Assembly: GCA_031416075.1 (NCBI GenBank)
Contig: JANOSY010000029.1
Coordinates: 1 to 26,261 of the forward strand
Length of the DNA stretch: 26,261 nucleotides
Direction of reading: 5' to 3'
Origin: Candidatus Tenderia sp.
Lineage (GTDB): Bacteria; Pseudomonadota; Gammaproteobacteria; Tenderiales; Tenderiaceae
Position numbers and translations under genes: made by a program. The notes beneath the pieces are model-generated. The model searched no databases. It had not been told where the DNA came from and worked only from the letters and a program-made list of their open reading frames with translations. Below are positions 6,651 through 26,261 of the stretch, one piece after another (the first letter of the stretch is position 1; each line of letters opens with the position of its first letter).

Positions 6651-7648
6651 TGACTATTGCGATTAATGGTGGTGACATTTATACAGATGTCAGCTCTTTG
6701 CGTAATCTGAAGCGAGAGGCCGCACAGGGATCATCACAGGCGCTTGAAAAGACGGCAGAGCAATTTGAGGCGCTGTTCCTTCAAATGATGCTTAAGTCTA
6801 TGCGTCAAAGTTCCAGTGGTGATGGAATGTTTGAGAGTGATCAGACCCGTTTTTACCAGCAGATGTTTGACCAGCAGATTTCCATCGACATGGCAAAAAA
6901 AAGGCAAATTGGCATTGCTGATATGCTTGTTAAGCAGTTGGGTAAGGATAAAGTAGAGAATGATATTCCATTAAACAGTGTCATAAATAGTGTGTCTGGA
7001 CCATCTAACTATGTACCTCAAGATTTAATTAAGCCTCAGGTTGTTAATATGGCTGATAAAGTATCTGCTGTTGAATTATCCGATCCTTTCTCAACTGATA
7101 CGGTATCAAAGTTATCAATAGAGTTAAAAATCAATCCAGTACATAGTAGCCGTATAGAGAAAAAAAGTTTTGATTCGCCAAACGACTTTATAGAAGAGCT
7201 TATGCCACTAGCAGAAAAATATGCAGCGGAGCTGGGTGTTGACCCACGTGTATTGTTGGCACAATCGGCTTTGGAGACGGGATGGGGTAAAAAAATAAAT
7301 CGTGATATGGCTGGGGTGAGTAGCCATAACCTATTTAATATAAAAGCGGATCAACGATGGTCGGGAGATAAGGTAATGGTCTCAACGCTTGAGTATGAAA
7401 ATGGCCGACCTATGCAACAAAGGGCTGTTTTTCGCTCATATCCAAATTTTGAAGAGAGCTTTAAGGATTATGTGGGGTTTCTGAAATCAAACCCCCGTTA
7501 TCAACAAGCGTTGAGCAAAGCCTCTGATGGTGCCGCTTTTGTGCGCTCCCTGCATGAAGCTGGATATGCCACTGATCCTAGGTATTCAGCAAAGATTACG
7601 ACTATTATGAGAAGTGATCTCTTGAGTGATCTTTCCCAAAAGATGTAG
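6650..7648 (+). CDS. flgJ: Flagellar rod cap / peptidoglycan hydrolase FlgJ
   Basis: Rod-binding motif AEQFEALFLQMMLKSMR and glucosaminidase motifs AQSALETGWG, NLFNIKA and GYATDPRY. TAATG overlap with flgI. Confidence 0.96.
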   Translation: MTIAINGGDIYTDVSSLRNLKREAAQGSSQALEKTAEQFEALFLQMMLKSMRQSSSGDGMFESDQTRFYQQMFDQQISIDMAKKRQIGIADMLVKQLGKDKVENDIPLNSVINSVSGPSNYVPQDLIKPQVVNMADKVSAVELSDPFSTDTVSKLSIELKINPVHSSRIEKKSFDSPNDFIEELMPLAEKYAAELGVDPRVLLAQSALETGWGKKINRDMAGVSSHNLFNIKADQRWSGDKVMVSTLEYENGRPMQQRAVFRSYPNFEESFKDYVGFLKSNPRYQQALSKASDGAAFVRSLHEAGYATDPRYSAKITTIMRSDLLSDLSQKM

Positions 7649-10565: not shown

Positions 10566-10686
10566 TGCCTGAAGACAATTTGTATACCGCTTTTTCATCG
10601 GACTCTATTTCTCGTTCACCATAGCATCACCCCTATTCAGGCCGTTATTACTATCCTCTGGCCGAAGTGACGAGAGAACATGCCCC

Positions 10687-10753
10687 GTCAATGTTTCGCC
10701 ATCATGCAGTTCTATTTATCTGGCCATCGCCAATAATTCGTCAAAATATCCAC
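10687..10753. promoter_or_regulatory. Candidate FleQ/FlrA-type activator boxes upstream of the glycosylation operon
   Basis: GTCAATGTTTCGCC (10687-10700), GCCAATAATTCGTC (10729-10742) and GTCAAAATATCCAC (10740-10753) each match the FleQ-box consensus GTCAATAAATTGAC at 9-10 of 14 positions, upstream of a sigma54-like site. Confidence 0.35.
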
Positions 10754-10792
10754 TATGGCGTCTATTTTTATCTGGTGGAGGCCCGTTATAGG

Positions 10793-10808
10793 TGGCATGG
10801 AAATTGAA
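10793..10808 (+). promoter_or_regulatory. Putative sigma54 promoter of the glycosylation operon
   Basis: TGGCAT-GGAAA-TTGAA: correct GG/-12 spacing with a degenerate -12 (A for C), ending 64 bp before the pseB ATG. Confidence 0.55.
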
Positions 10809-10842
10809 TCGATCTGAGTTGACTGGTTATAAATTACCATAA

Positions 10843-13015
<2,173 letters not shown>

Positions 13016-13019
<4 letters not shown>

Positions 13020-13882
13020 AAAACGGCCCAAAATTTATTGCCGAGGTCTCCAGCAACCACAGCCGTGATCTGAATCGTGCCCTTGAGTTTATCGATACCG
13101 CCGCTGAAATTGGTTGTGATGCAGTGAAATTCCAGCTCTTCAAGATCGAGCAGCTCTTTGCCCCGGTGATCCTGGCCAAGAGCGAGAGCCATCGTAAACG
13201 TAAAGAGTGGGAGCTGCCGCTGGAGTTTCTGCCGCATCTTCATCAGCGCTGTCGCGAGAAAAATATCGAATTCAGCTGCACCCCTTTTTATCTTGAGGCG
13301 GTGCAGGAGCTGCTGCCCTATGTCGATTTTTACAAGATCGCTTCGTATGAACTGTTGTGGGACGCGCTGCTGATCAAGTGTGTTGAGACCGGTAAGCCCG
13401 TGATCCTCTCCACCGGCATGGCGATCCTGCCGGAGATCAGCCACGCAATGGCGGTGATGCGTAACGCAGGTGGCAAAGATTTAGCGCTGCTGCATTGTGT
13501 CTCGGCCTATCCAACCCTGGCGCAGGACTGCAATCTGGCCGCCATCGCCACGATTCGTGAAGCGACAGGCGTGCCGCTTGGTTGGTCTGACCATACAGTA
13601 GATCCCGCCGTGATCTATCGCGCCATTAATCACTGGGGTGCCGAGTATATTGAGTTTCATCTTGACCTCGACGCCAATGGTGCCGAGTATGCCAGCGGCC
13701 ACTGCTGGTTGCCGCAGCAGATGGCGGAGGTGATCGCCACCGTCAAACGTGGTTTTAGTGCCGATGGTAATGGCCGCAAAGAGCCATCACCCTCAGAGCT
13801 GGCGGATCGTGATTGGCGCGCCGATCCTAAAGATGGCTTGCGGCCGATGCAGAAGATTCGTGACGAGTGGGAAAAACATTAA
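13016..13882 (+). CDS. pseI: NeuB/PseI-family nonulosonate synthase, short form without the C-terminal SAF domain
   Basis: Motifs FIAEVSSNH, DAVKFQ, KIASYE, PVILSTGM, LHCVSAYP, GWSDHT and IEFH; only 288 aa. ATGA overlap with pseC. The family call is secure but the exact product is not. Confidence 0.8.
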
Positions 13883-13897
13883 CAGGGAGTTTTACTG

Positions 13898-14644
13898 ATG
13901 GAACAACATCCACTAGTCATCATCACGGGCGGTACACGTGGCATTGGTTTGGCCACGGCGAAGGTGCTGGCGGCGCAGGGCTACGCGCTTGAACTCTGGT
14001 ATCAGAGCCGTAAGGATGATGCCGATAGCGCCCTGGAACAGTTGCAACAGTTCTCCGTGCCGGTGGTCTGCCGTCGCGTCAATATCGTTGAACGTAAACA
14101 GGTCCAGGATGCCTTGAATGATGTAGTCAGGTGCCACGGTGCCATTTATGGTTTGGTGAATAACGCCGGTATCCTGCAACAGAAACCCTTTGCCACCATC
14201 ACCGATGATGATTGGGAACGCATGGTCAACGTGAATCTCAAGGGGGCGTTTATCTGTTCGCAGGAGGTGATGGCGCGTATGGCTGGCAAAGGTGGTGTGA
14301 TTGTCAATGTCGCCTCGTCGGGTGGCCAGTTGGGTGGCATGTTGGCGGTCCATTACGCCGTCACCAAGGCGGGCATCATTGCCCTGACAAAATCGCTGGC
14401 GCGTGTTGGCGCCGCCAGTGGCATCCGTTCAAATTGTGTTTCACCTGGCTTGATCGTCACCGAGATGACTCAGGGTGAACTCAATTCAGACGCAGGCCGC
14501 GACAAGATCTCTCACCATGTGCCGATGGCCCGTCCCGGAGAGGCGGAGGAGGTGGCCGACGCCATCGCCTATCTGCTCTCGGACCAGGCAACCTACATCA
14601 CCGGCCAGACGCTCAACGTCAACGGCGGCTTGTACATGGGATGA
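13898..14644 (+). CDS. Short-chain dehydrogenase/reductase (FabG-like)
   Basis: TGGTRGIG, NNAG and catalytic S...YAVTK motifs; C-terminal YITGQTLNVNGG. Confidence 0.92.
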   Translation: MEQHPLVIITGGTRGIGLATAKVLAAQGYALELWYQSRKDDADSALEQLQQFSVPVVCRRVNIVERKQVQDALNDVVRCHGAIYGLVNNAGILQQKPFATITDDDWERMVNVNLKGAFICSQEVMARMAGKGGVIVNVASSGGQLGGMLAVHYAVTKAGIIALTKSLARVGAASGIRSNCVSPGLIVTEMTQGELNSDAGRDKISHHVPMARPGEAEEVADAIAYLLSDQATYITGQTLNVNGGLYMG

Positions 14645-15711
14645 AGCATGTGAATGAACAGCTTCATGCAGCAATCATCGGCCTGGGCCGCATCGCCTGG
14701 CGTATGGAGGATGATCCACTGCGCGCCAAGCCCTGCACCCATGTGGGCGCTTATCTCAAACATGGCTGCCGCATTCAGGCGGGGTGTGATGTGGATGAGA
14801 AGGCTCGCCAGGATTTTTCAAAACGTTATGGTGTTGAATCTCTGTACGACGATTACCGCCAGATGTTGCAACAGGAGCAGATCGACCTGCTCAGCATCTC
14901 GGCCTACGCCACCGAGCGCCATGCGATGGTGATGGCGGCCATCAAACAGAATATCCCGGCCATCTTCTGCGAAAAGGCGCTGGCCACCTCGCTGGAGCAG
15001 GCGGATGAGATGGTCGCAGCACTTGAGGCGAGTAATACCACGCTTGTCACCGGCCACATGCGGCGCTGGGCCAGTGATTACCAGCGCGTCAAATGGATGA
15101 TCGACAACGAGACCATCGGCCAGGTGCTCTCTGTCAACGTACTCTTCTCCGGCAGTCTGATTCACACCGGCAGCCACGCCTTCGATGTGCTCAACTGGTG
15201 GTTCGGTGAGCCACTGTCGGCGCAGGGGCGCGTGATCAGCAAGGCCAAAAAAGATCGGCAGAGTGGCTATCGCTACAGCGGTAAAAAGTTGGCGGATGGC
15301 GGTGGCGTGGGGCGCATTCACTTTGCCAACGGCGTGGTAGCCACCATCGAAGGGCAGGTGAAGGACTATTTTATATTTGAGTTTGATATCGTCGCCACCA
15401 AAGGGCGGATCAGGATCGGCAATGATGGCCTCGTGCTCTATCGTCCCGCTGCCAGTGAACGGATGAGCGGCTTTGATGAGCTGCTGCCTGCTACGCTTGA
15501 AACGCCACCACCTGCCTATGAGGGGACTGCCTGGGATGCAGCGGTGGCCGCGCTGTTAGGGAACGAGCAGTGTCTGCAAGTCGCATCAACGGCCAAAGAG
15601 GCACGCACGGCGCTGGAGATGGCGCTGACCTTCTACCACTCCCAGCAACAAGGGGGCATTGAGGTGACCTTTCCTCTGCCGCGAAATGGATTGTCAGTAC
15701 CTTCAAGATGA
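14641..15711 (+). CDS. Gfo/Idh/MocA-family NAD(P)-dependent oxidoreductase
   Basis: Rossmann motif AIIGLGRIA, CEKAL motif, GHMRRW and HTGSHAFD. ATGA overlap with the SDR gene. Confidence 0.9.
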   Translation: MKHVNEQLHAAIIGLGRIAWRMEDDPLRAKPCTHVGAYLKHGCRIQAGCDVDEKARQDFSKRYGVESLYDDYRQMLQQEQIDLLSISAYATERHAMVMAAIKQNIPAIFCEKALATSLEQADEMVAALEASNTTLVTGHMRRWASDYQRVKWMIDNETIGQVLSVNVLFSGSLIHTGSHAFDVLNWWFGEPLSAQGRVISKAKKDRQSGYRYSGKKLADGGGVGRIHFANGVVATIEGQVKDYFIFEFDIVATKGRIRIGNDGLVLYRPAASERMSGFDELLPATLETPPPAYEGTAWDAAVAALLGNEQCLQVASTAKEARTALEMALTFYHSQQQGGIEVTFPLPRNGLSVPSR

Positions 15712-15718
15712 CGGCGAG

Positions 15719-16954
15719 ATGATGAATATAAAAGAGTTGCCATGGACCCGGGTAAAACGGCTGCAACGCAGTGCAGCTGTTGCACCATTACAGTTGTTAC
15801 GCCACTGCCCTCTCTGCCATAGCAGTGCTGAAGAGGAGTTGTTTGCCCTGCACGACTTCCAGTTTTTTACCGATCAGGCGGGGCGCAATCGCGCCGATCA
15901 CCGCGTGGTGCACTGCCAGCAGTGTGGCCTGATCTATACCAACCCCTGTTACACACCTAAAGGTTTTCAGCTGCTGTTCGACAAGGCCGGTTGCAGTTAT
16001 GGTCACACCGCCGGGCGTATTGGTGAACAGGTGGCGTGGCTGAGCGGACAATTTCCCATCGCGCAATCGTTGCTGGATGTTGGGTGTGGTAATGGTGACC
16101 TGCTTAAGGCGTTGCCACACACAGTTTCACGCTACGGCATTGATGTCGATGAACAGACCCTTAACAGCGTTGCGCAAGCTGCGCCCGGCATCAACTTCAC
16201 TGTTTGCGACTTCAATGGTCTGAAGAGTCTGCCGCAGGTGGATGTGATCACCCTGTTCCATGTGCTGGAGCACCTTCCTGACCCCGATGGTTTTCTTGCT
16301 CAGCTGCGCCGCTTGTCGAAAGAGTCTGTTGCTCTGGTGATCGAGGTGCCGGTGGTGGATCGTGCCGCCGAATTGCAGGACCGCGATATCGTCGGATTTT
16401 TTACCGTGCAGCATCTCACCCATTTCAGTAAGACGACGCTGGAGAAGATGTTGGCGAAAAATGGCTGGCGCGTTGTTCATGCCGAGGCGATGGCGGGCTA
16501 CAACGGCTGGCGAGTCGTTGCGGAACATGGCCCGGCGCAGAGTGATGTTGGCCATGATGCCAGTGGCCTGATAGCCGCGCGCGTCTACCTCGATGTCTGG
16601 AAAAGAAACGTAGAACTGGTGAAGCGCCGCATCGAAAAATTGAACGGCGCACGGCAGATTATGATCTGGGGAGCAGGACAACACACTGAGTATCTGGCAT
16701 TGCTGACAGGTCTGTTTGATCTGGATGCCAGTTTTGTGGTGGTGGATAGTGATCCGATGAAACAGGGGCACCGTTACCATTCGTTGCCGGTTTTGTCGCC
16801 CGGGCAGATCTCTGAGTATGAGTGGCGGCAGGGGAGCTTCCCGATAGTGATCTCCACCTATGGCGGCCAGGAGAGTCTGTTGGCAATCCTGAAAGAGACG
16901 GGGGTGAATGAGTCCAGAATCATCGCGCTCTATGACAGGACATCACGTTACTAA
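15719..16954 (+). CDS. Class I SAM-dependent methyltransferase with N-terminal Zn-binding and C-terminal Rossmann-like domains (NDP-sugar C-methyltransferase-like)
   Basis: CPLC...CQQC Zn site, SAM motif LLDVGCGNG, HVLEHL, and C-terminal IWGAGQH...VDSDPMKQG. Start placed at ATG 15719 (or 15722), after the upstream stop. Confidence 0.85.
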   Translation: MMNIKELPWTRVKRLQRSAAVAPLQLLRHCPLCHSSAEEELFALHDFQFFTDQAGRNRADHRVVHCQQCGLIYTNPCYTPKGFQLLFDKAGCSYGHTAGRIGEQVAWLSGQFPIAQSLLDVGCGNGDLLKALPHTVSRYGIDVDEQTLNSVAQAAPGINFTVCDFNGLKSLPQVDVITLFHVLEHLPDPDGFLAQLRRLSKESVALVIEVPVVDRAAELQDRDIVGFFTVQHLTHFSKTTLEKMLAKNGWRVVHAEAMAGYNGWRVVAEHGPAQSDVGHDASGLIAARVYLDVWKRNVELVKRRIEKLNGARQIMIWGAGQHTEYLALLTGLFDLDASFVVVDSDPMKQGHRYHSLPVLSPGQISEYEWRQGSFPIVISTYGGQESLLAILKETGVNESRIIALYDRTSRY

Positions 16955-16980
16955 ATTGAAGATGACATGGAATTTCAATC

Positions 16981-18675
16981 ATGACAATCGGTGCTGAAAT
17001 TATCGTTGATGCATTTGTTCGCCACGGCTGCGAGCGGCTGTATGTCTATCCCGGCGGCACGATTGCGCCGATTCTGGATGATGCTAAAAAAAGGGGGCTG
17101 GATATATTTTGCGGCCGTCACGAACAGGGGGCCGGTTATGCCGCATTGGCGGTGTCACGCCTGCGGCAGCAGCCGCAGGTAGTGATGGTGACATCGGGGC
17201 CGGGGGTGACCAACCTCATCAGTGCGGTGGCCGACGCCTATTATGACAATACCCCGTTGATCGTAATTACCGGCCAGGTGGGGACGGGGGATCTCAAACG
17301 TGATCTGCCGATACGGCAGCGTGGTTTTCAGGAGACCGACAGCTGTGCCCTGATGGCTTCTATCACCAAGGCGCAGTTTTTGGTAGAGCATCAAGATGAT
17401 CTGGCGCGGGTGATGGAGCAGGCGTTTCATATCGCCGGCAGTGGCCGTTTTGGTCCGGTGTTGATCGATATGCCGATGAATGTGCAGCGTGGTGAGCTGT
17501 CTGCCGTCGCAGTTGTGCCTGCCATGTCGAAAGATGATCAGGCAGACGATCTTGCTGGCGTAGCAGAGTTAGCACAGTGGCTGAGTGAGGCGCAGCGTCC
17601 GGTTATCATCGCTGGGCAGGGAGTGCTGCTGTCACAAAGTCATGAACTATTGCGTGAGCTGGCAACAACCTATGGAATACCTGTCTCACATTCACTGCTG
17701 GGTCTGGGAGCGATGCCCTCTGATTCTGAATTGGCGTTGGGCTTTCACGGCCATACCGGCAATCAGTATGCAGGTAAGGCGATTCAGAATTCTGATCTTG
17801 TATTGACCATTGGCTCACGTCTCGATGTACGCCAGACCGGTAATCAGTTTGACCGTTTTGCACCAGGTGCACGCATTGTGCGTATCGACCTGGATGCCAA
17901 CGAGGTTAAACACGGCCGGGTCCGTACCAACCTGTTGATCAACGCCGATGCCAAGGCGGCATTGGCAGCACTGTTATTGGCATTGAAAAAGATGCAGCTG
18001 CCGCAGTGGACCGCCTGGCGACAACAGATTGATGGCTGGCGGCAAGAGTACGCGCTGACTTATAACCAACAGGGCAAACTCAAACCGCAACTGGTAGTGG
18101 AGAGTGCTGATCGCCTAAGCCGTGATAAACGGGTGATCTGCCTTACCGGTGTGGGTTCTCATCAACACTGGGTGGCGCGCCATTTCAGTTTTGACTATCC
18201 ACAACGCAGGCTGCTGACATCGGGTGGCCACGGTACCATGGGGTACGACCTGCCGAGTGCGGTAGGGGCGCAACTTCATGAAAAAGATGCGCTGGTGATC
18301 TGTATTGTGGGTGATGGTTCGTTTCAGATGAACATGCAGGAGCTGGGGGCAATTGCAGAACACAATCTGCCGGTAAAAATTATCGTGCTCGATAACCATC
18401 GCCTCGGCATCGTTTCGCAGTTCCAGAACTTCAACTGGCAGGATGACCCCACCACTGGCAATAAGTGGAATCCCGATTTCGCCGCCATTGCCCAGGGGTA
18501 TGGCATTCGCGCCTTTACGGTGAGTGAGAGCGGTGCGGTTGAGGCGACGCTGCAAGCGGCATTTGCCCACAACGGACCCGCGCTGGTCCACTGCATTATT
18601 GATGAAGAAGAGGATATTTCGCCCATGCTATTGGCGGGGCAGACACTCGACGGGATGTGGCCCCATGTTAAATAA
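16981..18675 (+). CDS. Thiamine-diphosphate-dependent enzyme, acetolactate synthase large-subunit-like
   Basis: YPGG, RHEQGA (catalytic Glu), TSGPGVTN, GSRLD, SGGHGTMG and the ThDP motif GDGSFQMN...LDN. Confidence 0.92.
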   Translation: MTIGAEIIVDAFVRHGCERLYVYPGGTIAPILDDAKKRGLDIFCGRHEQGAGYAALAVSRLRQQPQVVMVTSGPGVTNLISAVADAYYDNTPLIVITGQVGTGDLKRDLPIRQRGFQETDSCALMASITKAQFLVEHQDDLARVMEQAFHIAGSGRFGPVLIDMPMNVQRGELSAVAVVPAMSKDDQADDLAGVAELAQWLSEAQRPVIIAGQGVLLSQSHELLRELATTYGIPVSHSLLGLGAMPSDSELALGFHGHTGNQYAGKAIQNSDLVLTIGSRLDVRQTGNQFDRFAPGARIVRIDLDANEVKHGRVRTNLLINADAKAALAALLLALKKMQLPQWTAWRQQIDGWRQEYALTYNQQGKLKPQLVVESADRLSRDKRVICLTGVGSHQHWVARHFSFDYPQRRLLTSGGHGTMGYDLPSAVGAQLHEKDALVICIVGDGSFQMNMQELGAIAEHNLPVKIIVLDNHRLGIVSQFQNFNWQDDPTTGNKWNPDFAAIAQGYGIRAFTVSESGAVEATLQAAFAHNGPALVHCIIDEEEDISPMLLAGQTLDGMWPHVK

Positions 18676-19894
18676 ACAGAACAAAACTCTACTGGTGATC
18701 AGTGGCGGCGCCGAAGCAGTGCCGGGTATCAAACGCGCCAAGGCGATGGGATTGTATGTCGTAGTCAGCGATATGAACCCTGATGCGCCAGGGTTTGAGT
18801 GTGCCGATGATCGTCTCATCGCCAGCACTTACGATATTGAACAGACGGTTAGCGTTGCCCGCGATTACCACCTCAACAGGCGCAGGCTCGATGGCGTCAT
18901 CTGCATGGCCGCTGATGTGCCGCTGACCGTGGCCTCTGTCGCTGACGCCTTGGGGTTGCCGGGGTTGAGTCTGGAGACGGCGCATCTCGCCGCCGACAAG
19001 CTGCTGATGAAACAACGCTTCCAGCGTGATGGCATCGCCATCCCCTGGTTCAGCGCGGTGCAGTCACTGCAACAGTTACAACAGATTGTCAGCGAGCGTG
19101 GTGCGCGGCTGATTATCAAACCGGTGGACAGCCGTGGCGCCCGTGGTGTGTTGTTGCTAAATGAAGATATCGATCTTGGCTGGGCCTACGAACATGCGCG
19201 ATCACAATCACCCACGAGTCGGGTGATGGTAGAGCAGTATCTGCCCGGTCCACAGGTGAGCAGTGAGACGGTGATGGTGGATGGAGTCGGCTACACCTCT
19301 GGATTCGCCGATCGTAATTACGAATACATGGAGCGTTTTTCACCTTATGTGATTGAGAACGGTGGTGATCAGCCTTCACGTCTAAGCAGCGCCGATCAAC
19401 AGGCTGTCATCGCGTTGGCGGAGCAGGCAGGGCGTTCCATGGGTATCATGAACGGCATCGCCAAGGGTGACATGGTGATGACGGCGGATGGCCCGAAAGT
19501 GATTGAAATTGCCGCACGTCTCTCCGGTGGTTGGTTCTCAAGTGATCAGGTGCCATTGGCAACCGGTGTCGATCTGGTGGGCGCCGCGATTCAGACAGCG
19601 CTGGGCGAGAAGCCGGATACGGCTGCGCTGCTGCCCAAACATCACAAGGGGGTGGCGATCCGTTATTTCTTCCCTGAGCCGGGGGTAGTGAAGGCGATTC
19701 ATCACGCCGATCAGTTTGCCAACAAACCGTGGGTCCATCGGCTCGGCTTTTTTGTCGAGCCGGGTGAACGTATCGGCACGGTGAGCGACCACACCAAACG
19801 CGCCGGTTTTGTCATCACGCTCGGCAGTGACCGGGCTGAGGCGCTGGCCCGCGCTGATGAGGTGATCAACGCCATCGTGATTGAGATGGAATGA
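18665..19894 (+). CDS. ATP-grasp domain protein (L-amino acid ligase / carboxylate-amine ligase-like)
   Basis: Motifs DKLLMK, IIKPVDSRGARGV, VEQYLPG and IEIAARLSGG, with a C-terminal RAGFVITLG domain. True start is ATG 18665 (MLNKQNKTLLVISGG), overlapping the ThDP gene by 11 nt. Confidence 0.9.
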   Translation: MLNKQNKTLLVISGGAEAVPGIKRAKAMGLYVVVSDMNPDAPGFECADDRLIASTYDIEQTVSVARDYHLNRRRLDGVICMAADVPLTVASVADALGLPGLSLETAHLAADKLLMKQRFQRDGIAIPWFSAVQSLQQLQQIVSERGARLIIKPVDSRGARGVLLLNEDIDLGWAYEHARSQSPTSRVMVEQYLPGPQVSSETVMVDGVGYTSGFADRNYEYMERFSPYVIENGGDQPSRLSSADQQAVIALAEQAGRSMGIMNGIAKGDMVMTADGPKVIEIAARLSGGWFSSDQVPLATGVDLVGAAIQTALGEKPDTAALLPKHHKGVAIRYFFPEPGVVKAIHHADQFANKPWVHRLGFFVEPGERIGTVSDHTKRAGFVITLGSDRAEALARADEVINAIVIEME

Positions 19895-19898
19895 AACC

Positions 19899-21665
19899 AT
19901 GAGTGGATGCCGAGTATTGGGTGTCATCGGCGCCCGTCTCAACTCCAGCCGCCTGCCCGGCAAACATCTGCTCGACCTGGCGGGCAAACCGCTCATCGCC
20001 CGCATTTTCGAACGGCTGGAACAGATTCCTGAACTCGATGCCATCGTGCTCGCCACCACCGCTGACGACTACAACAAACCACTGGCGCAGTGGGCAGAGC
20101 AGGCGGGTAAAGCGCTGTTTGCCTTTGCTGGTGATGTCAATGATGTGGTGGGGCGTGTGAATGCCATCGTCAAACAGTACCAACCGCAGATGGTGGTCTA
20201 TTTCTGCGGCGACTCGCCACTGATCGAACCACCCACTGTTTCACGTCTCATCAATGCACTGCTTGCCGCACCTGAAGCCGATGTCGTTGAGCTGCGCTCC
20301 AGCCGTGCAGAGCGACGTTTCATTCATGAAGGGTTTATGCCCTGGCCGATCAAAACATGGCAGCGGCTGGTGGCGCTGGCGACTGCGGCGAGTGAGCGTG
20401 AGCACGTTGGTGCTTCACTGAAAAAAGCGGGGCCATTAACGACGGTGAGTGTCGCTGATGATGAGGTCTACTCACGCGTCGAACAGCGCATCTCGGTTGA
20501 TACCCCCTCTGACTACCAGTTTATGGCAGAGATCTATCGGCGCTGGTATGCAAAGAATCCGCCACGCTCCATCGTCTCGTTACCCTGGGTGATTGAACAA
20601 CTGCTGGCCGACGAGTCGTTGTCTCTTATGAATCAGCAGGTACGACAGAAGGGTGTTAACGATCGATCAGCCAAGATTGTTCTGCTCACACATTGCGGTG
20701 AGTCGATTGGTCTGGGCCATCTGCGCCGTGCCATGGTATTGGCGCGGGCGTTACAGGATCACCACTCGGCTGCCGTTGAGTTGTTGATTGTGGGTGATGC
20801 AGTTGCGTTGGCTGGTCTGGAGCTGCTGCCACACCGCTTTATTGTTGCAAACGGTGGTAGTGATCAGTTGGCGCAACAGCTGATGAGATGCCACCCCGAG
20901 GCGGTGGTGATAGATGTGGCGGCTGACCGTTTGAATGTTGATCTGGGTGCGCTGTTGGCACCACTACGTCAGCAGCGGATTGCCACGGTAGCCGTTGATG
21001 GTCTGATTGAACAGCATGAGCTGCTCGATCTGATCTTCATCCCATCATTCTATCTCGCCCCCGAGCAGAGGGCGCTGGTAGGGCAGGAGAAAGTTTTATA
21101 TGGCTGGGATAATTACTTTTTTGATTCGGCATTACAGCCGTCTCCCTGGAGTGGTGGTAATAAAGTACTGGTGATGACAGGTGGTAGCGACCATTACGGT
21201 TTGGGCACGCTCTGGCCAACCATGCTTGATAATGCATTGCCGACAGACACGGTGATCACCTGGATAGCAGGGCCTTACGCCAACGCGCCTGAGGTGCCGG
21301 TGAATCCACGGCTGACATGGCATATTGAACACGCACCTGACAATCTGGCGCAGTTGATGGCACAGGCCGATTACGCACTGACGCCGTATGGCGTTACATT
21401 GTTTGAGTTGTTGAAGTTGGCTAAACCGGTGGTCGCCTATCACCCTGATAGTAGCCAGCAGTCCGAGATGGCAGCTTTTATCGCGGCAGATGTGGCGCGG
21501 TTGTCCATGACGCCGACGGATGCGGTGGCGGCACTGGTAACGTTGATGAGTGATGTTAAGGCCGCCAGGGAGTTGGTAAAAAATGCAACGCAAAGGATGG
21601 TCAATAGCAATGGCGGCATCAAACTGGCTGCCAGTGTGATGGGACTCGTGGAGCGCCAACAATGA
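19899..21665 (+). CDS. pseF-pseG: Fusion of an SpsF/PseF-type cytidylyltransferase and a PseG/SpsG-type UDP-sugar hydrolase
   Basis: N-terminal ARLNSSRLPGK, GDSPLI, EREHV and ISVDTPSD. C-terminal IGLGHLRR (PseG catalytic His motif), MTGGSD and GVTLFE. Start ATG 19899. Confidence 0.85.
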   Translation: MSGCRVLGVIGARLNSSRLPGKHLLDLAGKPLIARIFERLEQIPELDAIVLATTADDYNKPLAQWAEQAGKALFAFAGDVNDVVGRVNAIVKQYQPQMVVYFCGDSPLIEPPTVSRLINALLAAPEADVVELRSSRAERRFIHEGFMPWPIKTWQRLVALATAASEREHVGASLKKAGPLTTVSVADDEVYSRVEQRISVDTPSDYQFMAEIYRRWYAKNPPRSIVSLPWVIEQLLADESLSLMNQQVRQKGVNDRSAKIVLLTHCGESIGLGHLRRAMVLARALQDHHSAAVELLIVGDAVALAGLELLPHRFIVANGGSDQLAQQLMRCHPEAVVIDVAADRLNVDLGALLAPLRQQRIATVAVDGLIEQHELLDLIFIPSFYLAPEQRALVGQEKVLYGWDNYFFDSALQPSPWSGGNKVLVMTGGSDHYGLGTLWPTMLDNALPTDTVITWIAGPYANAPEVPVNPRLTWHIEHAPDNLAQLMAQADYALTPYGVTLFELLKLAKPVVAYHPDSSQQSEMAAFIAADVARLSMTPTDAVAALVTLMSDVKAARELVKNATQRMVNSNGGIKLAASVMGLVERQQ

Positions 21666-23626
21666 AACAGGCCTATACCATCTTTCATCTCAATCTGGCT
21701 TACTCATCCATTGCGGAAGGGCAGCGCGGTACGGTGATAGAGAAGTGTTATATGCCGCTGCTCGAATTGATAGAACAGCGTGATTTTAAGATTGGCATAG
21801 AACTGACTGGCTGGACGCTTCTGCAGATCAATACACTGCTACCAGAGTGGGTGACACGGTTCAGGACGGCCCTGGCAGCGGGGCGTACCGAGTTGATTGG
21901 TAGTGGATATTGTCAGATTATTGGACCGTTGATTCCGTTTGAGGTCAATCAGTGGAATCAGCGCATCGGTTTGAATATCTATGACAAGTTGCTGGGCGTT
22001 AAACCACGGTTGGCGCTGGTCAATGAGATGGCCTACTCGTCGGGCATGCTGGAGCTTTATCAGGATGCGGGCTATGAAGGCATCATCATGGATAGTGACA
22101 ATGTGACGCTGGCCCATGATTTCATCGCCAGCCAACAGCGCCTGCCCAGTTACGCCAGCGATCAGAGTGGGAGTATTAAGCTGCCCGTGCTCTGGTCTGA
22201 TTCAATTTTGTTCCAAAAATTACAGCGCTATTGCCACGGTGATATTCGTCAGGTCGATTATCTCGGTTATTTCGAGAAGCGACTGGCCAATAGTCGTGTG
22301 CCACTGGCGCTCTACTGCAACGATGCCGAGGTGTTTGATTATCGCCCCGGTCGTTATGATTCTGAATCGAAACTGCATCTCGAAGGTGAGTGGCAGCGCT
22401 TAGCGAATCTGTTTGATAAGCTTGTTAATGAATATGCTATTGAAATGGCACTGCCTTCGGTTGTGCTGAAGAAACATTTATCACAGAATGGTCTTGAGTC
22501 ACTCTGTCTGACATCAGCAACACAGCCGATCCCGGTTAAAAAACAGGCCAAGTACAACATCAGCCGCTGGGCCATCACCGGGCGCGACGACCTCTGGTTA
22601 AACACCATGTGTCAGCGCCTCTATCAATGTTTGAAAGGTGGTCAGGACCAGGCGCAATGGCGCAGGCTTTGTGAACTCTGGTCGAGTGATATCCGAACCC
22701 ACATTACCACTGAGCGTTGGTGTGCGGCGCAGCAGCAGGTGCGGCAGATATTGGCCGAACTTGGTGGCAGTAGTGATTTTGATGGTGGTGTGAAACAGCA
22801 GTTCCCTATTGCGAATATTGATCATGGTGTATGTGATGGTGTGGTTGTTGAACGTGACCCCGAGGGGATCATGTTAACGCTTGCTACGCCTGATATACGA
22901 CTCAGGGTGAATCTACGGCGGGGCATGGCGTTTGATTCACTCGCCTTCAGGAGTCATGGCTGGCAGCCGATTATTGGTACCCTGCCACACGGTTATTTTG
23001 ACTCTATTGAACTGGGTGCAGATTTTTACTCGGCCATTACCGTGATTGAAAAGGTGACACAACATCAACGCATCACCGATCTGGAAAAGGTCGAGCCAGT
23101 GATCACACATGATGAACACCACCTCTATCTGCGCGCCGTGCTTGTCACCAAGGATGGCGAGATCGTCAAACAGCTGCGTATTTCACGTCATGGTGAAACG
23201 GTTGGTTTTGGCATTGAGTTTCCTGGCTGGAAACGCCCCTATGGCACCGTGCGCACCGGTTATCTCACCTTTCTGCCCGAGGCCTTTTCCGGGCCTATGA
23301 AGGTGAGGACCCGCAACGGTGGCAAGATGGCGGAGTCTTTTGAACTCGACCGTGATGTACTGCATACCCAACCCGCCTCGACGCTGGTCTCTGCGACTAC
23401 CGGCCTGGGCGGGGAGAGCGGGTCAATCACCGTGACAGATGATACGGTTGGGGTGGTGATTGACTGGCAGCCATCGGCGTGTGCAGCGTTCCCGATGCTC
23501 TATCATCGCGAATGTTCACCCGCCGCGTTGACGCGGATCATCTTTTCACTGGCAGAGCTGGATGAGTCATTCCGTGATGGTGCGGAACTGCCCGGTTTCT
23601 GTTTTTCAATCAGGCCATCAAGGTAA
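21662..23626 (+). CDS. Glycoside hydrolase family 57-like protein
   Basis: GH57 barrel pattern: CYMPLL, ELTGWTL, ELIGSGYCQIIGPLIP, LLGVKP, NEMAY (Glu122), IIMD and NDAEVF (Asp221), then a beta-rich C-terminal domain. ATGA overlap with the upstream gene. Confidence 0.8.
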   Translation: MKQAYTIFHLNLAYSSIAEGQRGTVIEKCYMPLLELIEQRDFKIGIELTGWTLLQINTLLPEWVTRFRTALAAGRTELIGSGYCQIIGPLIPFEVNQWNQRIGLNIYDKLLGVKPRLALVNEMAYSSGMLELYQDAGYEGIIMDSDNVTLAHDFIASQQRLPSYASDQSGSIKLPVLWSDSILFQKLQRYCHGDIRQVDYLGYFEKRLANSRVPLALYCNDAEVFDYRPGRYDSESKLHLEGEWQRLANLFDKLVNEYAIEMALPSVVLKKHLSQNGLESLCLTSATQPIPVKKQAKYNISRWAITGRDDLWLNTMCQRLYQCLKGGQDQAQWRRLCELWSSDIRTHITTERWCAAQQQVRQILAELGGSSDFDGGVKQQFPIANIDHGVCDGVVVERDPEGIMLTLATPDIRLRVNLRRGMAFDSLAFRSHGWQPIIGTLPHGYFDSIELGADFYSAITVIEKVTQHQRITDLEKVEPVITHDEHHLYLRAVLVTKDGEIVKQLRISRHGETVGFGIEFPGWKRPYGTVRTGYLTFLPEAFSGPMKVRTRNGGKMAESFELDRDVLHTQPASTLVSATTGLGGESGSITVTDDTVGVVIDWQPSACAAFPMLYHRECSPAALTRIIFSLAELDESFRDGAELPGFCFSIRPSR

Positions 23627-23632
23627 CGGCAT

Positions 23633-24916
23633 ATGCAGAGCGATTTTTTGCAGGGAAATCTCAAACTCATCGAGCAACGCTGGCCGCTGTTGCATCAGTC
23701 GCTCATCACTCTTACAGCTCCTGAGCGGGCGCACTTCATCAGCGAGACCCAACAGCCGACGCTGCTGCTGGATGGTATTCATCTGAGTAGCTGTTTTGAC
23801 AGCCGGAGTGAGGCGCGTCTGCAAGCCACGATGGTTGCAGAGTCTGCCACAACCGTGTGGGTCTATGGTGTGGCAACGGGTGATCTGCAACGTGAGTTGT
23901 TGCAAAGGCAGTGGCTGCAACGGTTGGAGGTGGTAATACTGAGTCTGGAGCTATTCAAAAGTTGTCTCCGATATTTTGATCATAGTGACTGGTTGGCAGA
24001 TAACCGCAGCAGATTAACACTGGCTACGGCCACCACCGATGTTCGGGTGCCGTTTGCCGTGGTACCGGGATGTCTTAAACTTATAGAACCGGCCGCTGCC
24101 AGGGTGCGCGATCTTATCGTATTAGAGCTGGATACTGGTTATCTCAATAGTCGGGTGAGGGGCAATCGTCAGTTCCAGCAACAGATAGATGAAAACCTAC
24201 CACTGGTTAAACAGGATGGTGATGTTGAGACGCTTTTTGGGCGTCATCGTGATGGTTTCTGCTATGTGGCGGCGGCGGGGCCATCTTTGAGTGAACAGTA
24301 TGAACGGTTGCGCGGACGTGGTGCCGATACCTATCTGATTGCGGTTGATGCGGCGCTCAGGCCGCTGTTGCTGCAAGGTATCGTGCCCGATTTGGTGGTG
24401 ACCATCGACGGTGTGCGTGATCACATCATGAAACTTTTTGATGTTGATCTTGCGCCACTGAAAGATATTCCACTGATCTATTTTCCGATTGTGCATGGCG
24501 ATGTACTTAAACAGTGGCCCGGGCCGCGTTATGCCGCCTATTCTAACAGCCCGCTTTATGAACAGCTGCTGTTGCAATCCCCCAAGGGCATGCTTTACGC
24601 GTCTGGCACCGTGCTGCATGCGGCCGTCGATCTGGCGGTGAAGATGGGCAGTCAAAAGATCTGGCTAATGGGGGCTGATTTCTCATTTCCCGGTAACAGA
24701 ACCCATGTTGCCAGCGCCGTCTTCTGCCAGTCGGCCGGTCAAACCGGTTATCAGGAGTGGCTTGAGGATGGCCATGGCCAACCGGTGCCGACCTCAAAAA
24801 ATTTGCGTGGTTATATGCGTGATCTTGAACGCTACATCGCCCAACATCCACAGCTCATATTTATCAATGCCAGCCGCAGCGGCGCGGCAATTATGGGGGC
24901 ACATTATGCCGATTAA
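23633..24916 (+). CDS. maf: Motility-associated factor (Maf, DUF115/MptE-like) flagellin nonulosonate glycosyltransferase
   Basis: Motifs AAGPSL, IAVDAAL, GIVPDLVVTID, GTVLHAAVDLA and LMGADFSF...TH; located in a pse cluster next to flg genes. Confidence 0.88.
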   Translation: MQSDFLQGNLKLIEQRWPLLHQSLITLTAPERAHFISETQQPTLLLDGIHLSSCFDSRSEARLQATMVAESATTVWVYGVATGDLQRELLQRQWLQRLEVVILSLELFKSCLRYFDHSDWLADNRSRLTLATATTDVRVPFAVVPGCLKLIEPAAARVRDLIVLELDTGYLNSRVRGNRQFQQQIDENLPLVKQDGDVETLFGRHRDGFCYVAAAGPSLSEQYERLRGRGADTYLIAVDAALRPLLLQGIVPDLVVTIDGVRDHIMKLFDVDLAPLKDIPLIYFPIVHGDVLKQWPGPRYAAYSNSPLYEQLLLQSPKGMLYASGTVLHAAVDLAVKMGSQKIWLMGADFSFPGNRTHVASAVFCQSAGQTGYQEWLEDGHGQPVPTSKNLRGYMRDLERYIAQHPQLIFINASRSGAAIMGAHYAD

Positions 24917-24931
24917 AACTGAGGCACTCGC

Positions 24932-25195
24932 ATGAAAAAAAACCCGTGTGATATATACAGGATGGAGGCAGTTGAGGCGTTTCGTATTGGCATGGAAGGC
25001 AAGGGCAGTGACGCGATGATGCGGTTGATGGATTGCATGGCGCCGCTGCTGGAGAATAATGCTGCTCATCTGGGGGCAGACGAGGCGGCATTGCTGAATC
25101 TTATTGCTGATGCACAGCAGCGCGGCGATTACATCTTTGTGGCAGATCTGCTGGAATATATGGTTCCAGATAGCGCGCTTGGTTTGTCTGTTTGA
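24932..25195 (+). CDS. Small helical protein associated with Maf
   Basis: 87-aa ORF with GAGG RBS 15 bp after maf. C-terminal AQQRGDYIFVADLLEY resembles the helical-bundle motif recalled from Maf C-termini and small flagellar-glycosylation proteins. Confidence 0.75.
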   Translation: MKKNPCDIYRMEAVEAFRIGMEGKGSDAMMRLMDCMAPLLENNAAHLGADEAALLNLIADAQQRGDYIFVADLLEYMVPDSALGLSV

Positions 25196-25207
25196 ACTCT
25201 ATTTTAT

Positions 25208-25229
25208 TCGGTAGTGACTGGTTTTTTTT
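25208..25229 (+). terminator. Weak candidate intrinsic terminator between convergent genes
   Basis: TCGGT-AGTG-ACTGG (stem with G-U pairs) followed by T8, in the 43-bp gap between convergent stops. Confidence 0.3.
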
Positions 25230-25238
25230 CAGCAGAAG

Positions 25239-26261
25239 TTATTTCTGTTTCAGTATCTGAGTCAGTTTTTCGACAGCAGGATGGTTTGGGTCAGTATCCA
25301 TAATATGGCCAAGGGCGCTTTCGGCGGCCTCGCGGGCGCCAACGTCGGATAGCAGTATGCCGAGTTCAAGCATGGTATCAAGATCGCCAGGATACTCTTG
25401 CAGGTAATGGGTATAAGCCGCTATCGCTTCAGTTACCTCTCCTGTCAATGCCAGGAAGCGGGCATAAAAAGGTTGGTAATTCACTCGGCTTTCCGCGAGT
25501 AATTTTAATGCCGGCAGGATGGTCTGATAATCTTCATTGACCAATGAGAAATTGACAATACGTTCAAGTGCTATCTGTTTCAGGTCACTGTTGATCTCTG
25601 CATCTATAGAGTAATAGAGCGCTTCGGCCTGCTTGGGATTATGCTCCAACTCCGCAATGAGCCCATCTGTAAATAGTTTTGTCTGTATGGCCAGGGGTTC
25701 TGTGCGCTTTGATAGCCCCGTGGAGATACGCTTTAGTCCCATCACATCACCCTTGGCATGATAGGTAATGGAATTTTCGACAATTGAACCAAAGGTGTTG
25801 GCTGCAGAGATAAGATTCTTAAAGCCCTGTTCAAAATTTTCTTTATCTGCACTGAGCATAGCGTGAAATTGAGAGTGCATCGATTTGATACGCTCTTTTA
25901 CTTGGGGTGATGCGTTTTTGTAGGTTTCAGGGTGACGCTGTTTCCATATGTCAGCGCGGCCATAACCTATGTCCTGCTGCCATTGATTGAACAGCATCTC
26001 AAAATCGGGTGATGGGCGTTCCTCTTCAATGCGGCTGCGCAGGCGTTGCTTGGCATCATTAATGACCTCCAGAAGCAGGGTGGCGCCATGGAGAAACTCT
26101 TCATAATAGATTTTTGTTTTGTTGAAGAGTTCATCGGCCGACCAGTCATCACCGGAATCGGCAGTGATAATCTTTGCAAAACCGACAGAGTTGTAGCGCT
26201 TTACTGTTTTGCTCATCATTTTAAAACGGATTTCGAGTCGTCTCTCGATCTTCTCCATCTG
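25239..26261 (-). CDS. 3' part of a larger helical/TPR-containing protein, possibly the C-terminus of a long Maf/DUF115 protein; partial at the window edge
   Basis: The frame stays open to the window end (CAG precedes the ATG at 26258). TPR-like C-terminal repeats: YARFLALTGEVTEAIAAYTHYLQEYPGD and LGILLSDVGAREAAESALGHIMDTDPNH. The Maf assignment rests on context and recalled architecture only. Confidence 0.7.
   Translation of the reverse strand, partial: QMEKIERRLEIRFKMMSKTVKRYNSVGFAKIITADSGDDWSADELFNKTKIYYEEFLHGATLLLEVINDAKQRLRSRIEEERPSPDFEMLFNQWQQDIGYGRADIWKQRHPETYKNASPQVKERIKSMHSQFHAMLSADKENFEQGFKNLISAANTFGSIVENSITYHAKGDVMGLKRISTGLSKRTEPLAIQTKLFTDGLIAELEHNPKQAEALYYSIDAEINSDLKQIALERIVNFSLVNEDYQTILPALKLLAESRVNYQPFYARFLALTGEVTEAIAAYTHYLQEYPGDLDTMLELGILLSDVGAREAAESALGHIMDTDPNHPAVEKLTQILKQK

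Follow-up and report, generated by a model that had tools for sequence, protein, structure and literature searches.

The window analysed here, the whole 26,261-nucleotide stretch of contig JANOSY010000029.1 from Candidatus Tenderia sp., carries a run of genes for a nonulosonate (sialic-acid-like) sugar, and among them a gene for a protein of glycoside hydrolase family 57 (GH57), which is our subject. The flagellar genes flgB to flgL precede pseB and pseC; the later genes are listed in Table 1.

Table 1. Genes of the window from pseB to the long Maf gene (Sfm and GlfM comparisons refer to Shewanella oneidensis)
Product	Coordinates	Strand	Basis and remarks
PseB UDP-GlcNAc 4,6-dehydratase (inverting)	10858..11871	+	TIGR03589, 544.2 bits (cut-off 407.75)
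PseC aminotransferase	11868..13019	+	TIGR03588, 447.1 bits (cut-off 423.5)
Short NeuB-family synthase, 288 aa, NeuB domain only, SfmA/PseI-like	13016..13882	+	Domain matches
FabG-like short-chain dehydrogenase, SfmC-like	13898..14644	+	Domain matches
GFO/IDH/MocA-family oxidoreductase	14641..15711	+	Domain matches; homologues in only 3/80 related loci
S-adenosylmethionine (SAM)-dependent methyltransferase, SfmD-like	15686..16954	+	Pfam
Thiamine pyrophosphate (TPP)-dependent acetolactate-synthase-like enzyme, SfmB-like	16981..18675	+	Domain matches
ATP-grasp carboxylate-amine ligase, SfmE-like	18665..19894	+	Likely ATG at 18665, inside a longer GTG open reading frame from 18524
Cytidylyltransferase/PseG-like GT-B fusion	19881..21665	+	CTP_transf_3 at residues 14-138; PseG-like at ~260-594
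GH57 enzyme, 654 aa	21662..23626	+	Barrel ~1-260, helical ~300-367, beta-sandwich ~395-654
Candidate short Maf-type flagellin glycosyltransferase, Maf-2 type, 427 aa	23633..24916	+	PF01973 MptE-like, E 1.7e-32
87-aa open reading frame, candidate GlfM-like adaptor	24932..25195	+	Position and size only
C-terminal tetratricopeptide-repeat (TPR) part of long Maf, Maf-1 type	25239..26261	-	Runs off the window

The GH57 gene and its product

The GH57 open reading frame (ORF) starts with ATG and is tightly packed on both sides. The upstream ORF stops with a TGA at 21663-21665, so that the two ORFs share the 4 nt ATGA; the GH57 gene ends with a TAA at 23624-23626, and the ATG of the next ORF, with its MptE-like/Maf domain, follows after 6 nt. 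No signal peptide or membrane segment was found in the 654-aa protein, whose maximal 19-residue Kyte-Doolittle mean is 1.08 and whose pI is 5.9; the N-terminus is not hydrophobic, and in an AlphaFold2 model the barrel begins with a strand at residues 3-9. Because it has neither a hydrophobic N-terminus nor a membrane-like segment, and because the gene junctions overlap or lie close, the protein is predicted to be cytoplasmic and translated as part of an operon. A first-pass annotation, made by a model from the letters and their translated ORFs, had named the ATGA coupling to the upstream fusion, the 6 bp before maf and the lack of a signal peptide; the ORF coordinates agree on the first two, and the hydropathy scan and the strand at 3-9 on the third.

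Pfam model PF03065 (Glyco_hydro_57) matches residues 25-272 (profile positions 43-282 of 291; E 7.2e-14, 52.2 bits, cut-off 21.2). As this match starts at residue 25 and profile position 43, the first conserved region falls outside the aligned part. The lone other Pfam match at E ≤ 1, PF25319 at 14.6 bits, is a chance one. At that threshold the protein had no match to PF09094 or PF09095 (the middle and C-terminal domains of the Thermococcus litoralis type), to deacetylase families including carbohydrate esterase family 4 (CE4), or to GH38 domains, and no NCBIfam model matched it.

The AlphaFold2 model, built on a 31-sequence alignment (predicted local distance difference test, pLDDT, 89.9; predicted TM-score, pTM, 0.91), places seven main strands within the first ~260 residues (3-9, 44-47, 76-80, 117-121, 140-144, 173-179 and 215-220), alternating with helices and accompanied by a short extra strand at 164-166. 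Helices at 300-367 come next, then a beta-rich C-terminal region (~395-652). We take the model to describe a soluble GH57-type enzyme with a predicted (beta/alpha)7 barrel, a helical bundle and a C-terminal beta-sandwich (395-654). E122 stands directly after the fourth strand and D221 directly after the seventh, which is where GH57 enzymes are described as having their catalytic Glu and Asp, respectively (PMC6037648).

By sequence, the sole solved relative was the 4-alpha-glucanotransferase of T. litoralis (PDB 1k1w, 659 aa; HMMER E 1e-5). A 31-member family profile found that enzyme at E 7.6e-6 and added only a Thermus branching enzyme at E ~7e-4. The HMMER alignment pairs E122 with residue 123 of 1k1w, D221 with 214, E223 with 216 and E77 with 79, as counted by hand from the printed alignment. 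Residues 1-60 gave no PDB match at E ≤ 10 and residues 281-380 a single chance match (E 0.85), so that the first and fifth conserved regions are not alignable by sequence to a solved GH57 structure. Foldseek with the model returned 1k1x first (E 2.3e-20), then GH38 mannosidases, then other GH57 structures (1e-9 to 7e-12). The T. litoralis enzyme is the best PDB match by both routes, and shares the domain order, a similar length and the aligned catalytic pair; but identity in the structural alignment is 12-13%, the whole-chain TM-score is ~0.42, its first region cannot be aligned, its PF09094 and PF09095 domains are absent here, and its context is glucan metabolism whereas the context here is glycan biosynthesis. 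The best whole-chain overlap was instead with GH38 alpha-mannosidases such as Bl_Man38A (7ufu), at query TM-scores of 0.57-0.66 and E down to 3.8e-20. These share the barrel and beta-sandwich; the GH38 targets have 900-1100 residues and, with no GH38 Pfam match here, the likeness is structural only.

We aligned the protein with 69 genomic relatives, the 70 sequences spanning family members of 38-93% identity. In this alignment 56 positions are invariant in 70/70, among them H9, N11, N121, E122, N220, D221, E223, D343, T346 and H347, together with seven basic residues (R228, R231, K293, K294, K297, R302 and R345), a set that would suit an anionic ligand. The GH57 catalytic signature of E77, E122, D221, E223 and D343 is retained, with four of the five invariant throughout. 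We predict a catalytically competent GH57 enzyme, with Glu122 as nucleophile and Asp221 as acid/base. The first-pass annotation had pointed to the GH57 fold and to the intact Glu122 (in NEMAY) and Asp221 (in NDAEVF), which the Pfam match, the 1k1w alignment and the 70/70 invariance all support; it had also described the usual HxHQP as replaced by HLNLAY, and the N-terminus does read ...FHLNLAYSS..., with both H9 and N11 invariant.

The same invariance bears on whether the protein might have no catalytic function and serve the ATP-grasp or GT-B enzyme as a sugar-binding scaffold or as a chaperone, a role that the tight adjacency of these genes would fit. A scaffold would not be expected to keep the catalytic pair and the polar residues around it unchanged in 70/70 sequences, and we consider this explanation highly improbable.

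Membership in a named GH57 group

In 2018 Martinovicova and Janecek defined in silico, from 15 bacterial sequences, a GH57 group that they named alpha-galactosidase-related enzymes, with a mean length of 660 aa, the full catalytic pair and, in their words for it, an undefined specificity (PMC6037648). Listed members come from Shewanella oneidensis MR-1, S. baltica, S. halifaxensis, Geobacter metallireducens, Pelobacter carbinolicus, Desulfovibrio alaskensis G20 and others (PMC6037648). Proteins of 633-663 aa make up 13 rows of the 15, and the other two, from C. kluyveri, have 747 aa (PMC6037648). The five conserved regions of our protein, HLNLA / GRTELI / LVNEMA / CNDAEVFDYR / LWSSDIRTH, match the form given for the group in Table S1 of that paper, for example HLNLA / GQCELV / LVNEQA / GNDIEIFDFR / LWSSDFRTH. 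The strings of one of the related loci described below (L047) are identical to the Pelobacter carbinolicus entry. According to the same source, the group has no aromatics at logo positions 35-36, the best discriminator of glucan-active specificities, and carries Thr and His/Lys there instead (PMC6037648). These positions correspond to T346 and H347. In Table S1 the first region of branching enzymes is HSHLP or HAHLP, which differs from HLNLA.

The length (654 against a mean of 660 aa) also agrees, and the two catalytic residues are separated by 99 positions, the spacing also seen in the S. baltica member (E126/D225). The differences from the 15 listed members lie in the residue after the nucleophile, Met here (NEM) and Gln there (NEQ), and in those before the acid/base, Cys-Asn here and Gly/Ser-Ser/Asn there; none of the differences from the listed entries excludes membership. 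As judged from these regions, the protein is a member of the alpha-galactosidase-related group, and HLNLA is a signature of the group, no peculiarity of this protein. Fold, catalytic pair and odd first region are already delimited in print, and are not new. The passages of the 2018 paper on the group do not discuss gene neighbourhood (PMC6037648), and that paper was the only one found for 'Galactosidase-related enzymes' together with GH57 in the searchable literature, outside which subscription-only papers lie.

The group is large. A word-indexed search scored 8000 candidates, of which 2225 reached E ≤ 0.001; the best 120 of these are all full-length, 46-94% identical and mostly without a name. 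A profile search of 1.84 billion representatives, each standing for a cluster at 50% identity, found 1332 at E ≤ 1e-3, of which 990 reached E ≤ 1e-10 and 610 reached E ≤ 1e-30. Since the T. litoralis enzyme reached only E 7.6e-6 in the much smaller PDB search, these counts should be essentially the group itself. In the ESM Atlas the nearest clusters carry PF03065 alone, and clusters that also have PF09094/PF09095 appear from rank 10 on. The first-pass annotation had proposed a subfamily separate from ordinary GH57 enzymes; the profile search, the Atlas clusters and the published group strings uphold that proposal, and clustering with ordinary amylases was not seen.

One fusion was found among the proteins scanned. 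Protein P0328 (metagenomic, 957 aa, a singleton cluster) has a C-terminal aminoglycoside 3-N-acetyltransferase-family domain (PF02522, residues 720-936), a single case that links the family to amino-sugar chemistry; there was no other extra domain among the six representatives longer than 690 aa scanned of 150 listed. No protein longer than 1146 aa was found, which is weak evidence on fusions. Long ORFs in loci L070, L072, L073, L076 and L078 were considered as fusions and are probably start-codon artefacts, because homology starts at query residue 1-5 (GH57 ORFs) or ~35-54 (ATP-grasp ORFs).

Gene neighbourhoods and the sfm clusters

A genome scan yielded 259 loci with relatives of the GH57 protein, and the best 80 were analysed. 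Neighbours were our own ORF calls of at least 70 aa, compared by blastp at E ≤ 1e-5. Many loci end at contig ends, so the counts of homologues are lower bounds; in two of the 80 loci the GH57 ORF was not recovered by ORF selection. Neighbours by position were counted in 78 loci. Carriers include Gamma-, Beta- and Alphaproteobacteria, Thermodesulfobacteriota, Chlorobiaceae, Verrucomicrobiota, Acidobacteriota, Acidimicrobiia and Chitinophagaceae, as well as Omnitrophota, Patescibacteria and one Aenigmatarchaeota archaeon.

Homologues of the window's ATP-grasp ligase were found in 60 of the 80 loci, of its cytidylyltransferase/PseG-like protein in 50, methyltransferase in 42, short NeuB in 39, short-chain dehydrogenase/reductase (SDR) in 31, PseC in 22, PseB and the TPP enzyme in 16 each, and Maf in 12. 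Clustering of the neighbours within eight genes gave ATP-grasp in 55/78, PseG-like in 44, methyltransferase in 42, short NeuB in 36 and SDR in 31. Split transketolase- and DXS-like TPP enzymes occur in further loci, and with the acetolactate-synthase-like (ALS-like) kind TPP enzymes of three kinds are present in 27/80. Flagellar neighbours in the same range were flagellin (20 of 78 loci), FliD (16) and FlaG (15); rarer neighbours were UxaC (6), the UDP-glucose-dehydrogenase family (6), the KduI family (5), formyltransferase (4) and PIG-L (3). Flagellar or Maf genes lie nearby in 26/80 loci, with none in reach in the other 54. Glycogen genes were absent from the neighbour clusters of the related loci.

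The commonest gene order is ATP-grasp, short NeuB, PseG-like, GH57, and a stand-alone PseG-like gene is the commonest immediate upstream neighbour (29/78). The GH57 start lies within 20 nt of an upstream same-strand ORF in 46 of the 67 loci where this could be assessed; 22 overlap, 14 by 4 nt. Directly after the GH57 gene come flagellin in seven loci, a short Maf in four and a long Maf in two. The residue after the nucleophile splits the family into an NEM type (42 loci) and an NEQ type (27 loci). NEM-type genes mostly follow short NeuB and PseG-like genes, the PseG-like gene being the same-strand upstream neighbour in 25/42; in the NEQ type the upstream neighbour is ATP-grasp in 12/27. NEQ-type loci often have split transketolase-like enzymes, iron-containing alcohol dehydrogenases, B12-radical-SAM enzymes and sulfotransferases.

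That homologues would be tied to glycan-biosynthesis genes, as the first-pass annotation expected, is true of most of the 80 loci. This synteny with the pathway, conserved across phyla, speaks against an ordinary alpha-glucan or alpha-galactoside enzyme that is merely located in the operon. Pfam and public annotations do call the protein GH57 or alpha-amylase, and it has its domains in the same order as the T. litoralis enzyme; yet it lacks the specificity-discriminating aromatics, its first region is unlike that of branching enzymes, and the neighbour clusters hold no glycogen genes. An ordinary enzyme of this kind seems to us barely credible.

The same module is found on plasmid pDCAR1 of Solidesulfovibrio carbinolicus (RefSeq, NZ_CP026539.1, L081), in the order pseF, PseG-like, methyltransferase, fabG, transketolase N, transketolase C, methyltransferase, ATP-grasp, 'glycoside hydrolase', pseB, pseC; a NeuB-family gene lies in the vicinity. 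Its gene at L081 6969-8048 is labelled 'acylneuraminate cytidylyltransferase' and matches the PseG-like profile at E 8e-39; the label is probably mistaken.

Four loci of Desulfuromonas/Pelobacter type (L042, L046, L047 and L054) have, in this order, ATP-grasp, a PIG-L de-N-acetylase (in three of the four), a formyltransferase and GH57, and in L046 and L054 flagellin genes come directly after the GH57 gene. The gene content of these loci suggests an N-formylated variant of the sugar. In other loci (L019, L020, L043, L050 and L011, L018, L037, L056, L079) UxaC or a KduI-family cupin with an SDR lies between PseC and ATP-grasp, which hints that in these organisms the group joined by the ligase derives from a uronic acid.

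In the window, the gene upstream of GH57 had been called a pseF-pseG fusion in the first pass. Its cytidylyltransferase half stands (CTP_transf_3, E 4.4e-23); the PseG half is matched only below threshold, by TIGR03590 over residues 265-528 (E 6.1e-14, 52.3 bits, cut-off 153.55). AlphaFold2 models this second half as a GT-B fold (pLDDT 94.1). Foldseek with the PseG-like domain returned MurG, MGD1, GT1 enzymes and UDP-GlcNAc 2-epimerases, with no PseG structure among ranks 1-50, and a sequence search of the PDB gave nothing at E ≤ 0.01. In the PseG-like protein Gly19, His20 and Arg23 are invariant and Gly17 nearly so, an N-terminal motif that we take to resemble the catalytic motif of PseG. For full-length GH57 protein with the PseG-like domain, two runs of complex prediction each gave a score of 0.00 (mark 0.32), which speaks neither for nor against an interaction. 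The PseG-like partner may either hydrolyse or transfer, and how it divides the labour with the GH57 enzyme would depend on which.

The ATP-grasp gene overlaps the TPP-enzyme gene by 11 nt (18665-18675), and the structure nearest to the ligase is the L-amino-acid ligase 3vot. Pfam and NCBIfam scans found no PseH-type acetyltransferase in the window cluster; the ligase may acylate the 4-amino group in place of a PseH-type N-acetyltransferase. The relatives in L001 (at 5907-6995) and L004 have an extra gene, for a 362-aa FkbM-family methyltransferase, between the TPP enzyme and ATP-grasp that the window does not; in relatives of this kind the GH57 protein is 74-93% identical to ours. Downstream, the 87-aa ORF begins 15 nt after the short Maf gene, and the same small ORF follows Maf in L001-L004; its L001 counterpart has no Pfam match. 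The full-length counterpart of the long Maf in L001 has 827 aa, with an MptE-like domain at 168-330 and C-terminal TPR. As the TPR end in the window matches this protein, the locus is predicted to encode both Maf types, a short Maf-2-like and a long Maf-1-like one. At the other end of the cluster, flgL and pseB are separated by 292 nt (10566-10857); a sigma-28-type pattern, modelled on the consensus quoted in PMC3765264 and like the one reported there upstream of the S. oneidensis sfm operon, had 0 matches in the window.

The cluster resembles the sfm genes of S. oneidensis. There sfmABCDE, for a short NeuB, a TPP enzyme, an SDR, a methyltransferase and an ATP-grasp protein, are required for flagellin modification: deletions of sfmA to sfmD abolish the modification and deletion of sfmE lowers it (PMC3765264). 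The product is described as a 274-Da mono-N-acetyl pseudaminic-acid-like sugar on serine; to it is attached another unit, of 236, 250 or 264 Da, whose structure is unsolved and which readily comes off in the ion source (PMC3765264). The S. oneidensis set also has pseB, pseC, an unusually large cytidylyltransferase (SO_3269), Maf-2 with GlfM, and a TPR-bearing Maf-1 (PMC3765264, PMC3120886, bioRxiv 10.1101/2023.12.03.569772); GlfM, of 89 aa and encoded beside maf-2, is an adaptor that Maf-2 needs (bioRxiv 10.1101/2023.12.03.569772). Sizes here and there are 288 and 290 aa for NeuB (SO_3261, a NeuB-domain protein; PMC3765264), 564 and 581 for the TPP enzyme, 248 and 255 for the SDR, 422 and 395 for the methyltransferase, and 409 and 412 for ATP-grasp. 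Common to both are PseB, PseC, the oversized cytidylyltransferase, a short Maf followed by an ORF of ~88 aa, and the long TPR-Maf. The window adds the GFO/IDH/MocA oxidoreductase to the published set. This likeness, between SO_3259-SO_3273 and window positions 10858-26261, is one of domain content and length alone.

The searchable literature, outside which subscription-only papers lie, contained no report of GH57 in connection with flagellin glycosylation, pseudaminic acid or nonulosonic acid; PMC3765264 has no occurrence of 'glycoside hydrolase', and for SO3266-SO3269, Q8EC76 or AAN56266 there was one preprint, which mentions SO_3269 alone. No paper in that literature was found to describe this GH57 group as a conserved part of pseudaminic-acid/sfm-type clusters in many phyla, non-flagellar loci included.

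Possible roles in nonulosonate biosynthesis

The best explanation that we can offer, held at somewhat less than even confidence, is that the GH57 enzyme is a dedicated part of an sfm-type pathway. The analysis shows the fold, the catalytic residues, the group membership and the conserved linkage to an ATP-grasp-centred operon; the substrate class, the step, and hydrolysis over transfer are what we infer. The pathway would build a derivatised pseudaminic-acid-like nonulosonate by means of PseB, PseC, the short NeuB, the ATP-grasp ligase, the TPP carboligase, the SDR, methyltransferases and the cytidylyltransferase/GT-B fusion, activate it with CTP and deliver it to the Maf transferases. Within it the GH57 enzyme would cleave a small sugar intermediate that is alpha-linked, carries negative charge and is most likely nucleotide- or phosphate-activated, by double displacement through a Glu122 glycosyl-enzyme. 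Our first guess is that water takes up the glycosyl group and the sugar is set free. Release would supply a free reducing sugar for the NeuB-type synthase, for the TPP carboligase or, in sister loci, for UxaC or KduI, and the product of this free-sugar branch would be joined by the ATP-grasp ligase.

Several lines lead to this proposal. An alpha-linked sugar and a Glu122 intermediate are suggested because the machinery of a retaining alpha-glycosidase or transglycosylase is intact. A small anionic substrate is likelier than a glucan because the glucan-subsite aromatics are missing and none of the seven basic residues varies. GH57 and ATP-grasp are the constant elements, and the tailoring enzymes encoded between them differ from locus to locus (ALS-, transketolase- or DXS-like TPP enzymes, UxaC, KduI, SDR or alcohol dehydrogenase, O- and radical-SAM methyltransferases), which makes a step that all variants share likely. 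NeuB-type synthases and several of the tailoring enzymes take free, not nucleotide-bound, sugars, which is why we propose free-sugar release from an activated precursor. PseG, the inverting UDP-sugar hydrolase of the canonical pseudaminic acid pathway, has an unrelated GT-B fold; it performs the same kind of step as is proposed here, giving a free sugar from a nucleotide sugar for a NeuB-type synthase. As a PseG-like GT-B protein adjoins the GH57 gene, the GH57 enzyme is not simply its replacement. GlgE, a GH13 maltosyltransferase with a sugar-1-phosphate donor and a glucan acceptor, is a precedent for a retaining glycosidase-fold enzyme in biosynthesis with a phosphate-activated donor; it belongs to another family and fold, and the parallel is one of analogy alone.

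A number of observations weigh against this explanation. No biochemical or genetic data on any member of the group were found in the searchable literature. The PseG-like GT-B protein may already perform the nucleotide-sugar hydrolysis, which would leave the GH57 enzyme without the role proposed. Transketolase- and DXS-like enzymes normally use phosphorylated sugars and would need no hydrolase. The invariance of the seven basic residues comes from the alignment, and a place for them beside the catalytic pair is an assumption of this reading. In 8 of the 69 typed loci there is no ATP-grasp, short NeuB or PseG-like gene within eight genes, and at least two of these (L008 and L024) have complete flanks made up of unrelated neighbours. 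The sfm deletions as published leave out the GH57 gene (PMC3765264), and the S. oneidensis GH57 copy may lie outside the sfm/pse island. Shewanella proteins were absent from the 120 best matches of our protein and from those of the Alishewanella protein, so the Shewanella copies form a more distant branch.

The main rival to free-sugar release is transfer onto the nonulosonate. Here the Glu122 glycosyl-enzyme would pass its sugar to the nonulosonate or its activated form, for example to install the labile outer unit of 236-264 Da. The nearest relative of known structure, whether ranked by sequence or by Foldseek E-value, is itself a transferase, the 4-alpha-glucanotransferase; the outer unit of the S. 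oneidensis glycan is the part easily lost in the ion source (PMC3765264); and neither the window cluster nor the pDCAR1 operon up to pseC shows a classical glycosyltransferase besides the Mafs and the GT-B PseG-like protein. The chemistry and linkage of that outer unit are, however, unsolved, small-molecule glycosylation of the glycosidase type is uncommon in biosynthesis, the GT-B protein or a second Maf could do the step, and most carriers have no characterised glycan. We judge a transglycosylase unlikely, though worth keeping in view.

The constancy of ATP-grasp, the most frequent neighbour (60/80), allows a different link: the GH57 protein might strip an N-acetyl group from the sugar and so free an amine for the ligase, as the first-pass annotation had offered in the alternative. 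The cluster has no PseH-type acetyltransferase, P0328 is fused to an acetyltransferase-family domain, and the GH57 fold class is shared with deacetylases. The full GH57 signature is nevertheless kept, with its near-complete invariance, no deacetylase family was matched at E ≤ 1, three loci have a separate PIG-L protein and a formyltransferase between ATP-grasp and GH57, and PseC already gives a free amine. The invariant signature, the missing deacetylase match and the separate PIG-L in three loci disfavour a de-N-acylase, which we hold to be very improbable.

The first pass had the enzyme acting on a nucleotide sugar or on the flagellin glycan. Of these we retain the former; the glycan is slightly less likely as the target, given the 54/80 loci with no flagellar or Maf gene in reach. 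A hydrolase that trims, edits or recycles the finished glycan, or dead-end activated sugars, would have intact catalytic residues, as here, and would suit a gene that is usually the last biosynthetic one, with flagellin or Maf genes next in the loci counted above. But the protein is predicted to be cytoplasmic, most loci have no flagellar or Maf gene, and 38-50% identity across many phyla together with tight biosynthetic coupling fits a core better than an accessory step. We think such a trimming role very improbable.

Stated at its most specific, free-sugar release or transfer would amount to a new GH57 specificity: the enzyme would act on a nucleotide- or phosphate-activated sugar in nonulosonate biosynthesis, and either release it for use in a side-chain branch or attach it as the outer unit of pseudaminic-acid glycans of the sfm type. 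This stronger claim is doubtful as matters stand. If true, it could be the missing activity that explains the unsolved 236-264 Da unit of the Shewanella flagellin glycan.

GH57 is treated as an alpha-amylase family, and one of its branches, large, phylogenetically wide and comprising no fewer than 610 clusters at 50% identity, appears committed to the biosynthesis of sialic-acid-like sugars. S. oneidensis MR-1 and D. alaskensis G20 are genetically tractable. Both have listed members of the group (Q8EC76 and Q316D0, respectively; PMC6037648), and the link by gene context gives a testable place to a branch flagged in 2018 as undefined in specificity. Solving its role would help to fill in how derivatised pseudaminic acids, on flagella and in other surface glycans, are put together chemically, and may provide a new tool for glycoengineering.

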